Sequence record: NC_135729.1 | Length of the DNA stretch: 64,000 bases | Source: a phage | Direction: 5' to 3' (one strand) | Part shown: piece after piece, positions 184 to 62,245 of the stretch | How positions within the stretch are numbered: position 1 is the stretch's first letter | How the letters are laid out: each line of letters begins with the position of its first letter | The notes under the pieces: model-generated | What the model saw: only the letters and a program-made list of their open reading frames with translations | Told to the model about the DNA's origin: nothing | The model's database searches: none | Made by a program: the position numbers and the translations under genes

Positions 184-1095
184 TTATTTCCCGTTAACTT
201 TGTTGTAGTTTCCCTGCTCAGATGGGACTATGGTAGAAGGTCTTCCATATTCCTGATAATACCAATCCGCAGCCGATTGGGTAACACCGTTTTCATCTGT
301 CCACATCATAGATTTGTATGGCTGCCACTCCTCTGCAGCGTTTGTGGATGCAGTGTCCGCGAATGCTCCTGTGTCCCTCTTGTTACCTACGTTACTACCA
401 TTCTTACAGTCGTTGACAGCGCCTTTTTGTTGGGTCTTGCCTACTTTCTTAGGATTGCTGTATACAGTTGCATTAACAACCTTATTCAAGTAGAATGTGC
501 GGAACTCTGTAAGTTCTACATCAAACACCATTGCAGCGCCTTCACCAACAGACTTGTTGGCAGAAAGACTGGTTATGATGTAGTTCTCAAGAAGTCTCTC
601 CTCGGTAACCAAAGAAACCAACTGTCGCTTATTGATAATCTCAGTCAAAGCCTCCAATGCAGCGCCTGGTCGCATAGATGCTGCAGGGTTTTTAGAGTCA
701 GTATTCCTATCAATGTAGTTTTGCTCATAGATTATGTGTGGGGATGTATTTACCCTACCAGTAAAAGAAAATACACCATCTTTAATTACGGCGTGGTCTG
801 ACAGGGTAGATTTATCTTCCACCGCAAACCCAGTCTTATCAACAGAATGTTTGAAAGAGTAATTCTCAACCTGATCGAAGATAATGGCAAGATCGTTAGT
901 AAAGTTTTTACCCTTCATCTCCGTATTGCGACCGCCATAGTTAAGACCGCTGACAAACATAGTGTACTTTACATCGCTTTCAGTTTGCTGCTCTGCCTTT
1001 TCAGCCTTTGGAGATTTAACCTCTTGAGGCTTGTACAGGTCTTTTTCATCAACTATATTGCTTGGCATAACCTCTCCAGGACACTCCGATACCAT
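184..1095 (-). CDS. putative distal tail/baseplate protein
   Basis: 303-aa ORF immediately downstream of the tape measure gene in the tail operon; no diagnostic motif. Confidence 0.45.
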   Translation of the reverse strand: MVSECPGEVMPSNIVDEKDLYKPQEVKSPKAEKAEQQTESDVKYTMFVSGLNYGGRNTEMKGKNFTNDLAIIFDQVENYSFKHSVDKTGFAVEDKSTLSDHAVIKDGVFSFTGRVNTSPHIIYEQNYIDRNTDSKNPAASMRPGAALEALTEIINKRQLVSLVTEERLLENYIITSLSANKSVGEGAAMVFDVELTEFRTFYLNKVVNATVYSNPKKVGKTQQKGAVNDCKNGSNVGNKRDTGAFADTASTNAAEEWQPYKSMMWTDENGVTQSAADWYYQEYGRPSTIVPSEQGNYNKVNGK

Positions 1096-4945: not shown

Positions 4946-6322
4946 TTATTCAGTCATTGCAACAGCATTGGTGGATTTAGAACCAACTTTGTCCAGAAGA
5001 ACGTTGATCCGGATACGAACGAAGTGCAGGGCGTTGTTATACACCAGTTCTACTTTCACACCTTCCAGAACACGAGCAGCCAACTGATTGGTTGGGATTT
5101 CTGCACGTTTAGGAACTGTGATGATCGGGTCGTAGAATACATTATTGTCTTCGTCGAAACCTGTCAGGATCGCACCATTCTTAATGCCAGTGTTGATTGG
5201 GTTGTTCATCAGGACAGACTTGATAACCGGAAGATCATCATCAGACATCTTCATGCTTAAACCCATGTTGGAGCGACGATGCATGTACCCAAACATAGAT
5301 TCTTCAGATCTGAACTTGATCCAGTGTGCAAAACGAATAGCGTCTGCATACTGACCTGAAGCACACTTACCTTCCCAGAAAGCGCCAACACCGTTAATCA
5401 TTCTGTAGAAGTTAACGTGGTTTTCCCAAATAGCCATACGCTGAGTTAAAGTCAGAGACGGTGCAATCACACCTGGCATCTGTTTTAAGTGCAAGCTGTC
5501 GCCGTAAGACGGATCGTTGGATGCCATAGCACCTATGATACCACCCTCCGGGAAGTCCTTATCTGCACGAGGATCGTACATGCCGACACTGTCATATTGT
5601 GCAGCTTTCAGTTTGGTGGCGATGTTATTATCTTTACCAGTCACATCTTCTGCAGTAGAGTAGACATGCAGCTTGTAGTTAGCCTGAGCCCACTTAGCAC
5701 ATGCTTCAATGTCGGTGTGGTCTTCATGGCACAGGAAGTACCAATTGTCACGCTCAGCATTGATCTTATCAACTACTGTAGAAGGTTTTTCAGCATTGGC
5801 GATATTTTTGATTGTATAGTTACCAGTATGGTAACCAACAGTACAGTCACCAGTGATGGTGATAACACCATCAGCAGCCTCTACAGTGATATCGTCCAAG
5901 TTATCATCTGCTTCGATTTTAGTCTTCATTGACTCTGCAATCTGAGTTGCAGCTGTTCCACCAGAGATAGGGACTATCAAAGAGGTATTGTAGCTACCTT
6001 TTGCAATAGTCATTACGACATCGGTATCAGCTGCGGCAGCAATACCTTTAAAATCTACAGTGGTCTTTTCTTTGGCCTGTCTGCCGATCATAACGTATTG
6101 TGGAGGGAATACACCACCAAAAGCTTTTGCTGCAAACTCATACGCTGCAGAGCCTTGTGCGAAACCATCTTCCACCATCTGATCCAGCTCTGCATATACG
6201 CGAGCTCGCTCAGTAAAGTTGTTGTGGATAGCGATGAACAGGGGAGTTTCGAAACCTACAGTGTCAATAGGCTGGGTTCCGAGGTTAACTGTAACATCTA
6301 CCACTTTATCTAAATATGGCAT
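4946..6322 (-). CDS. tail sheath protein
   Basis: 458-aa ORF preceding tube, chaperones and tape measure, the canonical myovirus gene order. Confidence 0.6.
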   Translation of the reverse strand: MPYLDKVVDVTVNLGTQPIDTVGFETPLFIAIHNNFTERARVYAELDQMVEDGFAQGSAAYEFAAKAFGGVFPPQYVMIGRQAKEKTTVDFKGIAAAADTDVVMTIAKGSYNTSLIVPISGGTAATQIAESMKTKIEADDNLDDITVEAADGVITITGDCTVGYHTGNYTIKNIANAEKPSTVVDKINAERDNWYFLCHEDHTDIEACAKWAQANYKLHVYSTAEDVTGKDNNIATKLKAAQYDSVGMYDPRADKDFPEGGIIGAMASNDPSYGDSLHLKQMPGVIAPSLTLTQRMAIWENHVNFYRMINGVGAFWEGKCASGQYADAIRFAHWIKFRSEESMFGYMHRRSNMGLSMKMSDDDLPVIKSVLMNNPINTGIKNGAILTGFDEDNNVFYDPIITVPKRAEIPTNQLAARVLEGVKVELVYNNALHFVRIRINVLLDKVGSKSTNAVAMTE

Positions 6323-6394
6323 TTGTTTCCTCTTAATATCTGTGCACGGATATCAAACACGCAGTGTAATCATTACACTACACAATTATAACGA

Positions 6395-6946
6395 TTACTG
6401 ACCACTGTCTGTAACCGCTTTACCAGAATTGGGTGAAGGGAAGTGTGTGGTTATTTCAGCCTTAATTCCCTGAAGATCCTCAAAAGCCCCAATGTCTGTT
6501 TCAACAAACCTTACGTTAAATGTCAGCATCACAGTGGCTCTATTTTCATACGTCTGTTTATTCAACGGCACTCTTTGAGGTGAGATTGTTGAATTGTTAG
6601 AGTAGGCAAAGCACGATCCCATAGGGAAATACTTGTCATAAAACATTGGAAGATTTATTGCTTGCAATACTCTGCTAAGTGCAGCATGTGCCCTGCCACG
6701 ATAAGCTGTTAACAGATAGGTAACAGTGTAACTGTGTGTTACGTAAGCATTACCCTCCGCATCTTGAAACTCATTATCTTCCCAAGTGGTGGGATTGATC
6801 GCCAAGGTTTGTAAAAGCACAAACTCACCTTCCGGCTTCGGTATGGTAGAGCTTTCTGCCAGAACTACAGTTCTTCCTGTGGCAACCTTGACAAGCTTAG
6901 CAATGGTTGTTTCAAGATCAGAAAAAACTTTTTCGAAAGCTTCCAT
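6395..6946 (-). CDS. hypothetical structural protein (neck/tail completion region)
   Basis: 183-aa ORF between capsid and sheath genes. Confidence 0.4.
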   Translation of the reverse strand: MEAFEKVFSDLETTIAKLVKVATGRTVVLAESSTIPKPEGEFVLLQTLAINPTTWEDNEFQDAEGNAYVTHSYTVTYLLTAYRGRAHAALSRVLQAINLPMFYDKYFPMGSCFAYSNNSTISPQRVPLNKQTYENRATVMLTFNVRFVETDIGAFEDLQGIKAEITTHFPSPNSGKAVTDSGQ

Positions 6947-16744: not shown

Positions 16745-16821
16745 TGGTCTCCACGGAGTGATTCGAACACTCGACCTCCTGATCCCAAATCAGGCGCTCT
16801 ACCAAGCTGAGCTACGCGGAG
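16745..16821 (-). tRNA. tRNA-Pro (anticodon TGG)
   Basis: Hand-folded cloverleaf: C1-G72 acceptor, D-arm GCTC/GAGC, anticodon loop TTTGGGA, T-loop TTCGAAT, encoded CCA. Confidence 0.8.
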
Positions 16822-16832
16822 TATCTACTATT

Positions 16833-16907
16833 TGGTGGCCCTGGGTGGAATTGAACCACCGTCTGGCGATTATGAGTCGCTTGCTTGAACCTTCCAGCTA
16901 CAGGGCC
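16833..16907 (-). tRNA. tRNA-Met (anticodon CAT; initiator, elongator or Ile2 not resolved)
   Basis: Hand-folded cloverleaf, anticodon loop CTCATAA, T-arm GGTGG/CCACC, encoded CCA. Confidence 0.7.
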
Positions 16908-16908
16908 A

Positions 16909-16983
16909 TGGTGCTGATGGCAGGACTTGAACCCGCAACCTATTGATTACAAATCAATTGCACTACCAATTGTGCTACATCAG
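16909..16983 (-). tRNA. tRNA-Thr (anticodon TGT)
   Basis: Hand-folded cloverleaf, D-arm GCAC/GTGC, anticodon loop TTTGTAA, T-loop TTCAAGT, encoded CCA. Confidence 0.8.
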
Positions 16984-16988
16984 CAAAA

Positions 16989-17087
16989 AGGTGCTAGGCG
17001 GTGGAATCGAACCACCTATGTATTCAACGACTACCTCGTCTATTTTCAGGATTAAAAATCCTCGCCCTTGCCAAAGGGCTTACCTAG
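16989..17087 (-). tRNA. aberrant tRNA-like element (about 97 nt; anticodon unresolved)
   Basis: Canonical acceptor stem, D-arm (GCCC/GGGC) and T-arm (GGTGG-TTCGATT-CCACC), but about 30 nt extra between anticodon-like hairpin and T-arm. Confidence 0.35.
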
Positions 17088-17185
17088 CTCAATATGTTGA
17101 CCATGTTGCTAGTCGGCGATGACGACTGTAACATTTGATAATCCGGTTCTGCTTCCGGCTTTCGCTTAATTGCAAGGTCAACAAT

Positions 17186-17276
17186 GTGGCGGAGAGTAAT
17201 GGAATCGAACCATCATCGAGTCATCCTCAACGGGACGGTTTTCAAGACCGCTTGAGCACCATTGCTCCCTACCCTC
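17186..17276 (-). tRNA. tRNA-Ser (anticodon TGA), type II
   Basis: Acceptor GGAGGGT, anticodon loop CTTGAAA, long variable arm, T-loop TTCGATT, encoded CCA. Confidence 0.7.
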
Positions 17277-17392
17277 CTTTATAAATTATACTGATAATGA
17301 CACTGATTTTCGAGCAGTTAGTGACTAGTATAAACGACGATAAATATCAATGCCATTATCTGTATTATTTATGCATCTAAAAAATATAAATT

Positions 17393-17479
17393 TGGTGGGG
17401 AGTGGTGGAGTCGAACCACCCGAGTCGCAATGACAATAGATTTACAGTCTACACCGCTACCTCTACGGGATAACTCCCC
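17393..17479 (-). tRNA. tRNA-Tyr (anticodon GTA), type II
   Basis: Anticodon loop CTGTAAA; variable arm TGTCATTGCGACTCG closely resembles E. coli tRNA-Tyr; T-arm GGTGG/CCACC; CCA encoded. Confidence 0.75.
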
Positions 17480-17483
17480 AATT

Positions 17484-17558
17484 TGGCACCCCGTACTGGA
17501 CTCGAACCAGTGTCAACGGCTTAGAAGGCCGCTGCTTTATCCACTAAGCTAACAGGGC
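17484..17558 (-). tRNA. tRNA-Arg (anticodon TCT)
   Basis: D-arm GCTT/AAGC, anticodon loop CTTCTAA, T-loop TTCGAGT, encoded CCA. Confidence 0.8.
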
Positions 17559-59133: not shown

Positions 59134-59349
59134 ATGAAGATAGAAATATTTGGTGGAGCTGACAACACTCGTGGCCTGATTTACCTTGAATTCGATGAAT
59201 CATACCTGCCAGAGGTGTTAAATATAGACTCTGTTGCTGAGGCTTTGGGAGTAAGTCCTAAAGATCTCTACTCTGGTGCTGAGATTGATGGTTGGGAGGA
59301 GACCATGAACATTGATTTCAGTGAAGTAGGTGATGAACCACTGGACTGA
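59134..59349 (+). CDS. hypothetical small acidic protein
   Basis: Start at Met MKIEIFGG with AGAGGAGA SD. Confidence 0.35.
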   Translation: MKIEIFGGADNTRGLIYLEFDESYLPEVLNIDSVAEALGVSPKDLYSGAEIDGWEETMNIDFSEVGDEPLD

Positions 59350-60192
59350 CACACAATTAGCTACCCGGCTAAAGTGCTGGGAGCACCTATAACACATCTT
59401 TCAACTAAATTTCCTACCACCACAATCACTTACCTCCCACACATGACTGTTTGCTTGTTTAGTGAGCAGTCATGCCTTGACATTCTTGCCTATCCTGATA
59501 AAATTAAGTTCTTCTCTTTTCTTTTACCGAGTAATTCGGGTTTTCTGTTCTCTTCGGTTTGAAGGGGTATAGAGATACACCTGAGTGAACAGGGTGAACA
59601 ACCGAACCATTAGCTATGGCATTAGCATGGCGAAGCGGACGGGTGACGAAAGAGGGGCCGGAGGACACCAGTCACTGCCATATGATATATGGGTGATAAC
59701 CTGAAGAGTCTGAATAAGTGTTTAAGTACCAGTCAGAGGAAAAGGTGAATGGTAGCCGAAGGGGGGAGGGGGGTTTCTTGTATCTTTAATTTGTATATTA
59801 TGTATACACTTGTAAACCAATCTAATCTGAATCTGTTTACCACGCAAAGCGGATAGAGACAAATATTGCCTATTAAACTTGAATTATTTATAGAAAATAC
59901 CACAACACCCCTTAAGTCTTTGATTTTACACACAAATCCTACAGATATTCAACCTCCATATTTAACATACTTGTAACATATTCCATACTCTACCTGTCTG
60001 ATCAACTCACCCAACTACATCCTCCATATTTCCCCTGTCTGTACTACCCCTGCCCCGCCTGGAGTCCCGTCATATCTGGCTTTCCAGCAAATATCCCACC
60101 CACAAATATCATTGCCTGAAGAGGGTTTCCTCCCATAATACATGCCTTACCTGAAGAGCGCTTCATATACCCCGTAAATTTTTTAATTGACA

Positions 60193-60225
60193 CCCTCCCC
60201 GCCGCCGGAGGGGGTTGGCTTTTCC
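60193..60225 (+). terminator. GC-rich hairpin, terminator-like
   Basis: CCCTCCCCGCCGCCGGAGGGGG followed by TTGGCTTTTCC. Confidence 0.35.
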
Positions 60226-60882
60226 CACACAGACCTGAAGAGCCAGCCAGAAATATCTGAACAGGTCCAGTTATACCACGATTTTGACCTGACCGACAGG
60301 AGTGCTGCCAGGCGGACGAAATGGGAATACTTCTCATTCTTATAACAATTCTCAAATATCGAGGCAGTGAGGCAAATTAATAGGTGAGGCCGTTCACATA
60401 GTGGCACAACATTTGCAATCTATTTTGTGTGGGGAATGAGAATACATATCATTGTGAGAACCATTATCATTACGGGCAATTTAACATAATACCCATTATG
60501 CGCACCACTGGCGATCCATACAGGGATTGATAACATGAGTTACTGTTTACACACATAACAATTATATTTCTTACTATTTGTGTGGGATATAGTTAGCAGC
60601 CGATAGATTAGATATTGACCTGTGGACTTCCAACAGTCTAGACGTCTAAGCGCCCACACAACAAGGCTTATACATACACAACTGAATGTAAACAGGGCCG
60701 CAAAAATGCTACCATACCAGCTTGTAAATTTTTCATACAGCACTTGACAAAGAGGAGAAAAACTTGTCTGACACTTTAGACACCTTTGACACACTGGGCA
60801 TACTAAACACTGGATATAATAACAATTGTTACTATTGCATGCCTCACTGTTCACGTATAGACTATTTGCTCAAAAATTATAA

Positions 60883-61171
60883 GCCATGCCATTCGTTTGC
60901 ATGATAACGATTAGCAAGTTAATAATCTTTCACTGGCTATGCCAGGTGACCTTTGGTCACCCCTTCGGGTGTTTCTATGACATAATATAAAAGCAGGGCA
61001 ACTATTAGAAGATCTATAGTTGCCTTGCTTGTTATGTCATGATTAACTAAATACAAGGCAACTATGATCTGATTAATAGTTTGCAGGCAAACTATCACGG
61101 GGGTGATGGTTACTGCTTTTATATTATGTCGCGACTCCGTCGCGCCATGCCATTCGTTTGCATAGTTGCCT
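60883..61171. repeat. repeat cluster: 20-bp direct repeats flanking nested inverted repeats and multiple GGCAACTAT/ATAGTTGCC 9-mers
   Basis: GCCATGCCATTCGTTTGCAT at about 60883 and 61144; palindromes GGTGACC-TTT-GGTCACC and GGCAACTAT...ATAGTTGCC; 9-mer in both orientations at least five times. Confidence 0.6.
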
Positions 61172-61779
61172 TATTGTTACAGGTAAAATAATCACATTAT
61201 TAATTATTTCTTATCTTTCTCTTAGTCATCTAATGATTCCAGTCAGTATAGTAATGTACAGTAGACATTAGACGACTAAAGATTTCTCTGTTTATGATAA
61301 CTCATCGTGATAATTTCGGACTGTTTACGAAAAATGTTGACACCTGAGCTGATTTATGTTATGCAGTTTACACGAATAATTATTTTATGCAGGTATTGAC
61401 TATTCCGTTATTCTGTGGTTGGAATAAATACTTTGCAGGCTATAGAATGGCGTGCGTACGTGAATTCTTAGATCTGGCGGCTATAGTTATACTCGATTTT
61501 TCGCGTAGGACACGCTTTCTATGTTGTGTAAGTGTATGACTTATAAAGATTTTTAGTTGTTGACAAGATATTGGAGATGTGCATCAGGTTAAAATTTGTG
61601 CAATAGCGGCATTACGTGCACTTTTGGGAGAGAAAACGGGTAAAAATGGCCCTGCTACCACACAGTGAAAGATTATGCAATAGTTATTTTATATGTATAT
61701 TTGTACAGTGTGTGGGATTAATGGCTAGTCAATTATTCCACTTGCCGGGTAGGGCCGTTTATGGTAGGAGAAGAGCAGA

Positions 61780-61806
61780 CAAAAAGAAAGGGGCCTTTAA
61801 GCCCCT
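61780..61806 (-). terminator. intrinsic terminator for leftward genes
   Basis: GGGGC-ttaaag-GCCCC followed by TTTCTTTTTG on minus strand. Confidence 0.5.
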
Positions 61807-61825
61807 TGATAATTCAGTTAAGAAA

Positions 61826-62245
61826 TTATAATGATTCGTATATTTCAAAAATCCGATTTGCCAGGTCGTTACGGTAGCGGAATTTTTCATCACGTTTGAT
61901 CATCAGATCTTTAAAGCCGTATTCTTTAAGCACTTCATTAACTTTATGGCGGCACACCTTCATATTGTCCTGAGCGTCACCAATAAACCTGTTGCTATGG
62001 TGCATGGCTTTAATTTCTTCTTCCAGGACCAGGGCAACTATGCGGACCGGATCAAGCTGATAGGCGGTAACATCAATGCGGCATTGTAAACGGCTTTTTA
62101 CGTCTGCCACCGGATATACTGCAACCTCTTCCCCGTCAACATTGACAATAATTAGTTTACCATCGATTTCGAATCCTTTCGCCGCCGGACCGTGACAAAA
62201 AGCGTTATCAAAGCTATATGCCGGATTATCAGATTTAATGTTCAT
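61826..62245 (-). CDS. hypothetical protein
   Basis: 139-aa ORF with AAGAGGT SD. Confidence 0.45.
   Translation of the reverse strand: MNIKSDNPAYSFDNAFCHGPAAKGFEIDGKLIIVNVDGEEVAVYPVADVKSRLQCRIDVTAYQLDPVRIVALVLEEEIKAMHHSNRFIGDAQDNMKVCRHKVNEVLKEYGFKDLMIKRDEKFRYRNDLANRIFEIYESL

Follow-up and report, generated by a model that had tools for sequence, protein, structure and literature searches.

A candidate structured element, conserved and strand-specific, beside the left terminal repeat of rV5-like Vequintavirus phages

The DNA considered here is a stretch of 64,000 nucleotides of phage record NC_135729.1, hereafter the window, which belongs to an rV5-like coliphage of the genus Vequintavirus, and the subject is a repeat-rich element at 60883-61171 that contains a highly conserved and strongly folding block, referred to below as the core. 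The element sits in a gap of about 2.5 kb without genes (window ~59350-61825) between two convergent transcription units. The rV5 genome paper draws this as a grey "non-coding" box with no open reading frames at 104013-106618 and gives no interpretation (PMC3606486). The 1.3 kb surrounding the element are matched by 119 phage records at 90-98% identity, all of them rV5-like Vequintavirus. None of the literature found describes the element, which is previously unannotated and unusual in both its conservation and its structure.

The virion DNA of Vequintavirus phages has non-permuted direct terminal repeats (DTR) of 458-459 bp, according to three independent reports (PMC6658697, PMC6563267, PMC7471380), and the PhageTerm-derived repeat of LL12 is at 104966-105424 (PMC6658697). 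The DTR of the window was placed by homology to the repeats of relatives: the LL12 repeat aligns base for base with window 60311-60768, the bov10K2, Gotham and EdH4 records each begin at the equivalent of window 60311, and the Gotham record has an annotated repeat_region at 1-459. On this homology the gap would hold the physical ends of the genome and the element would lie near the left virion end, with 115 bp between the right DTR boundary so placed and the element, and 211 bp between that boundary and the core. On the other side of the element is the gene for a 139-amino-acid protein (61826-62245, - strand), which has no Pfam domain, is conserved at 85-100% across Vequintavirus, Phapecoctavirus and Septuagintavirus-like phages and is always the first gene inside the left end; a strong terminator for the last - strand gene is found at 61807-61788. 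The "FtsK" label that a neighbour carries in navn and isim is unsupported by Pfam. GC skew gives no location for an origin, because its switches track the direction of transcription, in the window as in the published analysis (PMC3606486).

The features that a first-pass annotation had described in this element are all present where it had placed them. The 20-mer GCCATGCCATTCGTTTGCAT occurs in two perfect copies, 261 bp apart from start to start, and the search for it elsewhere that the annotation had proposed finds none outside the locus: there is no third copy in the 64 kb even with three mismatches allowed, with 0 expected by chance. The palindrome GGTGACC-TTT-GGTCACC is at 60945-60961, and in a nested palindrome ATGACATAA (60977-60985) and TTATGTCAT (61032-61040) enclose the 9-mer GGCAACTAT and its inverse ATAGTTGCC (sites S1 and S2 in Table 1). 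The same annotation had counted at least five copies of the 9-mer in both orientations; both orientations do occur, but the exact copies number four, starting at 60997 and 61057 on the + strand and at 61016 and 61162 on the - strand. Two more, ATAGTTTGC (61076-61084) and GCAAACTAT (61087-61095), differ by the insertion of one base, and this makes six related sites, three on each strand, arranged as dyads inside 175 bp, with two dyads of the form GGCAACTAT-N10-ATAGTT(T)GC lying 60 bp apart. At up to one mismatch the 9-mer shows no enrichment across the window (20 found, 14.7 expected); matches to the extended 18-mer TAAnAnnAAGGCAACTAT are only the four exact sites, against 0.21 expected, and 0 of 100 shuffles reach four. 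The strongest feature was absent from the first-pass annotation and is a perfect 18-bp inverted repeat, GACATAATATAAAAGCAG, which encloses nearly all of the others and for which 0.14 matches are expected at up to three mismatches.

The core, the best conserved part of the region, is 96-99% identical in 117 of the 119 Vequintavirus records, with the 18-bp arms invariant in all 17 Vequintavirus sequences checked, and the 200 bp to its left are hypervariable. In predicted folds of the + strand the 18-bp arms form a closing helix (P1) around a long branch (P2) and a hairpin with a GGGG loop (P3), followed by a short GC hairpin (P4); P2 is built either from S1 with S4 plus S2 with S3 or, alternatively, from S1 with S2 and S3 with S4, and a sixth site, S6, can pair with S3 in an alternative fold. 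The "iterons" are thus mostly helix arms, because the 9-mer sites form P2. Read by eye in the window (P1; S1 with S2; P3), the fold has two imperfect stem positions, one in the S1 and S2 stem and one in P3, and both are G·T on the + strand. Folding alone does not discriminate between the strands, both of which reach z-scores of -7 to -8.5.

Discrimination comes from relatives, where the compensatory support for the helices lies, the nearly invariant Vequintavirus sequences drawing theirs from comparison with a sister clade. Our covariation set consists of eight Stephanstirmvirinae sequences, with a consensus of 54 pairs in five helices. In this alignment 99.1% of the cells are paired and in 13 of the 54 pairs both partners have changed; the covariation score was equalled in none of 500 shuffles, and when the partners are slid by one to three columns as a control, pairing falls to 23-53%. 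The cells that depart from Watson-Crick pairing are distributed very unequally, with 42 G·U against a single A·C when the + strand is read (10 pair columns against 1; P ~0.02 after correction for base composition), and four positions are G·T in all eight sequences. The minimum free energy of the + strand is better than that of the - strand by 15-21 kcal/mol in nine of nine relatives, and by 4-9 kcal/mol in the window and the sister clade.

A covariance model (R1) was then built from the eight distant Stephanstirmvirinae sequences only; its calibration was shortened and its E-values are rough. It matches the window at 60979-61151 (+) over model positions 1-159 of 159 with 29.4 bits, at an E-value of 1.4e-6 in the 2.6-kb gap and of 5.3e-5 in a filter-free search of 95 kb that included the whole window. 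It recognises the corresponding place in Gotham, typing phage 5 and the sister clade as well; it has no match in Septuagintavirus A73, nor in L020 (OLOT01000016.1), in which large insertions split the fold. As judged by this model, the window core is a member of the same structured family as the Stephanstirmvirinae elements, a family that is defined here and takes in Vequintavirinae as well as Stephanstirmvirinae.

The wider distribution of this architecture can be followed through several groups of phages. The sister clade is uncultivated, consisting of one IMG/VR contig and three metagenome contigs. It too has two flanking direct repeats, both of which are a diverged 21-mer, GCGCCATGTTATCGTTGCAT, changed in concert, and a perfect closing inverted repeat of 17 bp (GACATAATAACGCTGAG/CTCAGCGTTATTATGTC); its CAC-GGGG-GTG hairpin is kept, with the stem re-paired from CTAT/ATGG to ATAA/TTAT. 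Phapecoctavirus and other relatives have the 139-amino-acid gene at 85-90% conservation, and downstream of it, where records open at the homologous genome end, a perfect 15-bp inverted repeat encloses two long hairpins, with a GC hairpin next. This Phapecoctavirus-type version has DNA homologues of 72-81% identity in Justusliebigvirus (phi92-like), Citrobacter phage Tr1 and Klebsiella phages. Across Phapecoctavirus, Justusliebigvirus, Tr1 and the Klebsiella phages the closing stems read ..AAGCC/GGCTT.., ..AACGC/GCGTT.., ..ACCGC/GCGGT.. and ..AACAC/GTGTT.., and the terminal hairpin occurs as ACCATC/GATGGT, ACTATC/GATAGT, ACTATT/AATAGT and ATAATC/GATTAT. Where relatives carry large insertions (33 bp in LL12 and typing phage 5, GC modules in L020), the added DNA is in loops or between one helix and the next. 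The position common to all is between the DTR and the conserved 139-amino-acid gene, as can be read directly from Gotham, whose record starts at the DTR and has the element at 659-831 (+), and from Mt1B1_P17, whose record starts at the homologous end and has it at ~523-678 (+). A metagenome scan with a structure-based pattern yielded six true relatives, and four chance matches in GC-rich contigs were discarded (L022, L025, L027, L028); IMG/VR scans with the 20-mer and with the 139-amino-acid protein found only two to three loci.

Comparison of the anatomy among 16 relatives gives the following order of blocks to the right of the DTR (coordinates in Table 1): (a) TGACAY arrays, (b) arrays of CTGTTYAC/ATAGTTTAC-like units with a period of 15-16 bp, (c) DR-L, the left copy of the 20-mer, (d) AACAAGnTAACAAT-like units in an array, (e) a GC-rich module of three hairpins that is not always present, (f) the core, (g) DR-R, the right copy, which overlaps a sixth 9-mer, and (h) a conserved AT-rich stretch. 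Blocks (a), (b), (d) and (e) vary in length in almost every phage, and it is because of this that the spacing of the 20-mers ranges from 213 to 294 bp, and the distance from DTR to core from ~195 to 340 bp, across relatives. The arrays right after the DTR, which in the window contain TGACACCTT x2.7 and in JES2013 have the 15-16-bp period, fall to an identity of 0.43-0.76 and are the least conserved stretch in 5 kb; in the window, L017, L018 and others they run from 2 to ~13 units with periods of ~10 and 15-16 bp and vary between phages that are otherwise 95% identical. The GGTGACC/GGTCACC-GGGTG hairpins of block (e) are missing in seven of the 16 relatives (IMG 3300010279, IMG 2051223002, Gotham, EdH4, isim, ECP26 and A142) and likewise in JES2013, and a similar GC-rich module stands at other positions in L020. 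Such modules (CTGGC-tat-GCCAG-GTGACC-ttt-GGTCACC-CC-ttcg-GGTG, and the CGCTGGCTTCGCCAGGTAGCTCCGCTACC type) are present or absent among close relatives, at window 60931-60975, between the closing-stem arms in L020, and after TTGCTTGTTA (window 61034) in LL12, typing phage 5 and C7; sitting in loops or between helices, they behave like tiny insertion sequences amid an AT-rich region. Block (h), at ~61150-61250, is among the 25 most AT-rich of ~6,400 windows of 100 bp, with an identity of 0.97 among relatives at 61200-61249, and its sister-clade equivalent is, as judged by eye, markedly more AT-rich.

Table 1. Features at the left-end locus, in window coordinates
Feature	Position	Strand	Remarks
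Direct terminal repeat (DTR) of virion DNA, 458 bp	60311..60768	.	placed by homology to LL12, Gotham, EdH4, bov10K2
Hypervariable short-repeat arrays (TGACAY, then CTGTTYAC/ATAGTTTAC-type units)	60769..60882	.	number of copies different in each relative
Left 20-bp direct repeat (DR-L), GCCATGCCATTCGTTTGCAT	60883..60902	+	kept in 16/16 relatives inspected; position 7 is C or A
Optional GC-rich hairpin module (CTGGC-tat-GCCAG, GGTGACC-ttt-GGTCACC, CACCC-cttc-GGGTG plus TTTCT)	60931..60975	+	indel, outside the conserved core
Structured core	60979..61143	+	folds with z -7 to -8.5; conservation; covariance model match
Core helix P1, 18-bp closing stem	60979-60996 with 61113-61130	+	inverted repeat
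Core helix P2, long branch of GGCAACTAT/ATAGTTGCC arms	S1 60997-61005, S2 61016-61024, S3 61057-61065, S4 61076-61084	+	
Core helix P3, AACTATCAC-GGGG-GTGATGGTT	61090-61111	+	
Core helix P4, GCGAC-TCC-GTCGC, 3' GC hairpin	61131-61143	+	
Right 20-bp direct repeat (DR-R), GCCATGCCATTCGTTTGCAT	61144..61163	+	begins directly after P4
Sixth 9-mer site S6 (ATAGTTGCC plus TTATTGTTA)	61162..61179	-	overlaps the end of DR-R; retained in FV3
AT-rich stretch, highly conserved	61171..61240	.	80% A+T at 61175-61224

One phage, FV3, lacks the whole segment. It has a single 20-mer, everything between the two copies is missing, and the covariance model finds no match in it; the remaining 20-mer is the left-copy variant GCCATGACATT, joined directly to the right-hand flank AGTTGCCTTATTG. 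Alignment had been proposed as a way to see whether the segment is an insertion, and it does reveal a presence/absence polymorphism, though one that runs in the opposite direction. As the segment is present in 117 of 119 records and the two-repeat layout, found also in the sister clade, is ancestral, the state of FV3 is, on its sequence, a deletion by recombination between the 20-mers and not an empty insertion site. FV3 is an isolated phage, and its deposited genome shows, as we infer, that the core is dispensable, being not essential for plaque formation.

We read these observations as a conserved, strand-specific structured element next to the left DTR, here in its Vequintavirus version, and as an overall explanation of the locus we give this an even chance of being right. 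That selection acts on a single-stranded fold is rather probable: a functional single-stranded nucleic acid is favoured because a multi-helix fold with compensatory changes and with wobble pairs on one strand is its usual signature. More tentatively, and with somewhat less than even confidence, we favour for it a structured non-coding RNA domain read from the DTR inward; the alternative, unlikely by itself, is that what folds is instead the + DNA strand when single-stranded in replication or junction processing. In such a scheme the 18-bp inverted repeat would be the closing helix, the GGCAACTAT "iterons" the arms of internal helices, the GCGAC hairpin the 3' helix and the 20-mers conserved flanks. 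The active form would be the single-stranded + strand, reading away from the DTR into the genome, and if transcribed it would make an RNA domain of ~165 nt, either standing alone or forming the 5' portion of a longer transcript that is itself non-coding. Its role would presumably lie in a genome-end process, either priming or initiation beside the AT-rich stretch or processing of the terminal repeat, rather than in the work of a diffusible regulator. A more specific version, which must count as speculative and improbable as it stands, is a three-way-junction RNA that takes part, in cis or in trans, in the metabolism of genome ends, by licensing or priming repeat duplication or by aiding terminase, for instance; functionally such an RNA would correspond to the packaging RNA of phi29 (pRNA) in a wholly different packaging system, and FV3 would survive by a bypass.

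Several observations weigh against this structured-element reading. The window has no convincing sigma-70 promoter upstream of the core and no intrinsic terminator downstream of it; inspection by eye around DR-L, the edge of the DTR and the block 61200-61600 found no properly spaced sigma-70 promoter, a good promoter-like site 21 nt upstream of the core being seen in alia only, and in the window phage a terminator-like hairpin (60958-60971 plus TTTCT) stands immediately upstream of the core. The literature searched on these phages yielded no expression, transcriptome or non-coding RNA data. Rfam at its gathering threshold recognises only transfer RNAs elsewhere in the window and nothing in the gap, and a search of 59300-61900 with Rfam 15 at E-values up to 5 returned only a spurious match to a long non-coding RNA. 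The Vequintavirus core is so invariant as to show hardly any covariation of its own, and one variant breaks a pair (T·T in ECP26); palindromic DNA folds well on either strand by construction, and the wobble asymmetry is drawn from eight related sequences, in which 11 columns are variable or wobble. The loops are conserved as well as the stems, and short motifs recur outside the fold (S6, and GCTAATnAT copies in relatives), so that protein-binding sites in duplex DNA would also fit.

This last point leads to the explanations in which the DNA itself is the signal. One is a signal for genome-end processing in duplex or in single-stranded + strand DNA, whether as a platform for terminase or an accessory protein, of the lambda cosB or T7/T3 pacB type, or as a hairpin used in duplicating the concatemer-junction repeat. 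The core lies on the left-end side, 210 bp from the DTR boundary, in every lineage; its repeated sites are inverted, as in cosB, and the flanking short-repeat arrays resemble those beside the T7 terminal repeat, which Dunn and Studier reportedly noted in 1983. In T7 the repeat is duplicated by nicking plus strand displacement or primed synthesis, and hairpin DNA carrying the repeat has been seen in infection (PMC4281155); here the + strand would be the one displaced by synthesis from the left DTR boundary, which would explain the wobble asymmetry without an RNA. The invariant G·T positions are nevertheless harder to explain for DNA hairpins than for RNA, and of the properties that a terminase site should have, the core shows proximity to the cut (211 bp) without the others: array expansion shifts its distance from the DTR between relatives, unexpected for a site that positions a nuclease, and FV3 produces virions without any of it. 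We therefore rate a processing signal as not likely. Somewhat less likely still is an origin of replication, either iteron-type, as the first-pass annotation had suggested, or activated by transcription, in which an initiator would bind the GGCAACTAT dyads and open the AT-rich stretch and the structured transcript could serve as primer RNA. It would account for six related sites, two dyads among them, followed immediately by a stretch of 80% A+T whose sister-clade equivalent appears more AT-rich by eye; the sister clade also has three perfect DnaA boxes ~300 bp away, in the stretch that aligns to the DTR, and the dispensability seen in FV3 is compatible with redundant origins, for which the T7 primary origin is a precedent. 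The iteron comparison finds no support, however, in sites that are inverted and paired: the 9-mers are stem-forming pairs and not helically phased direct repeats, and in relatives the corresponding sites show base-pair covariation and accept insertions in the loops. Nor is there a TTATCCACA DnaA box with up to one mismatch in 59350-61825, and Pfam gives no significant family and recognises no initiator-like domain among the five flanking small proteins, which leaves room for an unrecognisable initiator. An origin 700 bp from the left end would, moreover, drive forks head-on into the leftward transcription unit that starts here, which extends through genes 10-1-238-164 (PMC3606486).

Two further explanations fare worse. 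A bidirectional terminator or insulator between the convergent transcription units, built of repeated hairpins, is very unlikely. In its favour, the rV5 authors had expected bidirectional terminators between genes 163 and 164 and found none (PMC3606486), CTGCTTTTATATTATGTC follows a hairpin on both strands, and the annotators of Murica placed a terminator on the S1/S2 hairpin, on the - strand. Against it, the last gene on the - strand is already served by the strong terminator given above, the T-runs at the hairpins are poor, termination needs far less than a multi-branch fold of 165 nt whose closing helix has 18 bp and whose branches covary, and strand asymmetry is unexpected for a bidirectional device. 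The other suggestion of the first-pass annotation, that the segment is a small insertion, or a mobile element, with the 20-bp direct repeats as its borders, is barely credible. The single 20-mer of FV3, without the intervening segment, would fit it, and small GC-rich modules nearby do behave as insertions; against this, the segment is found once per genome, at no other locus in 50,697 phage records and without a match outside the genus at the DNA level, and its inverted repeats, rather than marking the ends of the segment, are set in from the direct repeats by 76 nt and 13 nt. The two-repeat layout is ancestral, since the sister clade has it with both repeats changed in concert, and the FV3 junction, in which the left-type GCCATGACATT meets the right flank, is the signature of deletion by recombination, so that both the direction of the change and the ancestral layout contradict an insertion.

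Among known systems, the phi29 pRNA is the closest to the structured element in shape and position, but membership of its family fails. Both are non-coding elements of ~120-170 nt near the left genome end, with, in the topology predicted here, a closing helix in which the two ends pair, a three-way junction from which two hairpins branch, and a further hairpin domain on the 3' side. The element has, however, no match to pRNA or to any Rfam model, inspection of the hairpin loops in nine relatives (no formal search) showed no obvious complementary loop pair, pRNA is essential where the element is dispensable in FV3, and the hosts here are large myoviruses with terminase and terminal repeats and not protein-primed podoviruses. 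The closest layout is that of the left end in the T7 group, where a terminal repeat and variable short-repeat arrays are followed by a conserved non-coding control block before the first genes. Processing of T7 concatemer junctions was reportedly treated by Chung and Hinkle in 1990. The same group provides a precedent for hairpin DNA and transcription in such processing (PMC4281155), but it has no sequence similarity to the element and no large covarying multi-helix fold, and the first genes here point toward the end. Lambda cosB and P1 pac are likewise clusters of short protein sites, repeated in either orientation and no more than a few hundred bp from where terminase cuts, whereas the element has a variable spacing to the cut, is dispensable in FV3 and has sites that covary as base pairs.

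To our knowledge, two-step injection is not known for the phages considered here. The closest verbal description in the literature is nonetheless that of the injection stop signal region of T5, an extensive untranslated region at the genome end, dense with palindromes and with repeats, inverted ones included (10.1101/866236); the sister clade, with its three perfect DnaA boxes, adds to the likeness. The T5 region differs in lying inside a 10-kb terminal repeat and in being defined by 8 DnaA boxes, whereas the element is outside a 458-bp repeat in a window locus without a DnaA box. With the iteron origins of lambda (ori), P1 (oriR) and plasmids the element has in common repeated sites beside an AT-rich stretch; unlike them, the window locus has no phased direct repeats, no DnaA boxes and no recognised initiator gene. 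The single-strand origins of rolling-circle plasmids are non-coding, strongly folded, strand-specific and dispensable, with structure conserved over sequence, and the element shares all of these features; we know of no single-stranded stage in the replication of these phages.

Other observations were made in and around the gap. A non-coding block at 59400-59780 is 96-100% identical across 11 relatives and has no Rfam match; it includes the best sigma-70-like promoter in the gap (59477-59504, +; TTGACA-16-TAAAAT with an upstream TG), after which come a small hairpin plus T-run (59527-59539) and a purine-rich stretch, and it is a candidate for a second non-coding RNA gene on these sequence features. 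Another 9-mer, CCTGAAGAG, occurs seven times in the window against 0.53 expected, five of its copies forming a cluster in the 1.2 kb left of the DTR (59053, 59700, 60115, 60150 and 60234, all +); it is repeated three times at the equivalent side of the distantly related contig IMGVR_UViG_3300045988_159287 (L007), as CTCTTCAGG (6361-6378, 6467-6483 and 6717-6734), and possibly serves as a protein site on the side of the right genome end. The same contig has three perfect TTATCCACA DnaA boxes in direct orientation within 45 bp (5845-5884), in the DTR-aligned stretch, and a fourth with one mismatch at 6029, which recalls the T5 injection-stop array. To the right of the core are two weak promoter-like units on the + strand, similar to each other and conserved (TAGTCA-18-TATAGT at 61223-61252; TAGACG-18-TATGAT at 61269-61298); 61222-61235 and 61266-61279 form a 14-bp inverted repeat, and a related motif, TCTAGACGTCTAAG, is found inside the DTR at 60638-60651.

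Farther off, a cluster of transfer RNA genes at 16745-17558 on the - strand comprises seven calls (Pro, Met, Thr, Ser, Tyr, Arg), and an aberrant ARAGORN call with a four-base anticodon (16990-17088) is not confirmed by Rfam. Among the 119 matching records, 18 are named "Campylobacter phage" (MG0656xx), most of them with C. jejuni as host, and are 95-98% identical here to E. coli Vequintaviruses; the closest relatives of the window are among them (C2, C15), and A142, the only one of these records that was opened, is flagged UNVERIFIED. They are probably mislabelled coliphages.

Phages of the rV5, phAPEC8 and phi92 types rank with the coliphages most often isolated for therapy and biocontrol, and in their genomes this 2.5-kb region has been left blank since 2013. 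The physical genome ends can now be placed in the gap, and its most conserved block is a covarying, strand-specific fold common to two phage subfamilies, which offers a handle on how myoviruses with short terminal repeats replicate, process or protect their ends, a matter about which little is known outside T7. FV3, as a natural deletion mutant, is available for comparison. Should the element be an RNA, it would represent a new family of phage RNAs; should it be a DNA signal, it would mark where engineered genomes must not be cut.

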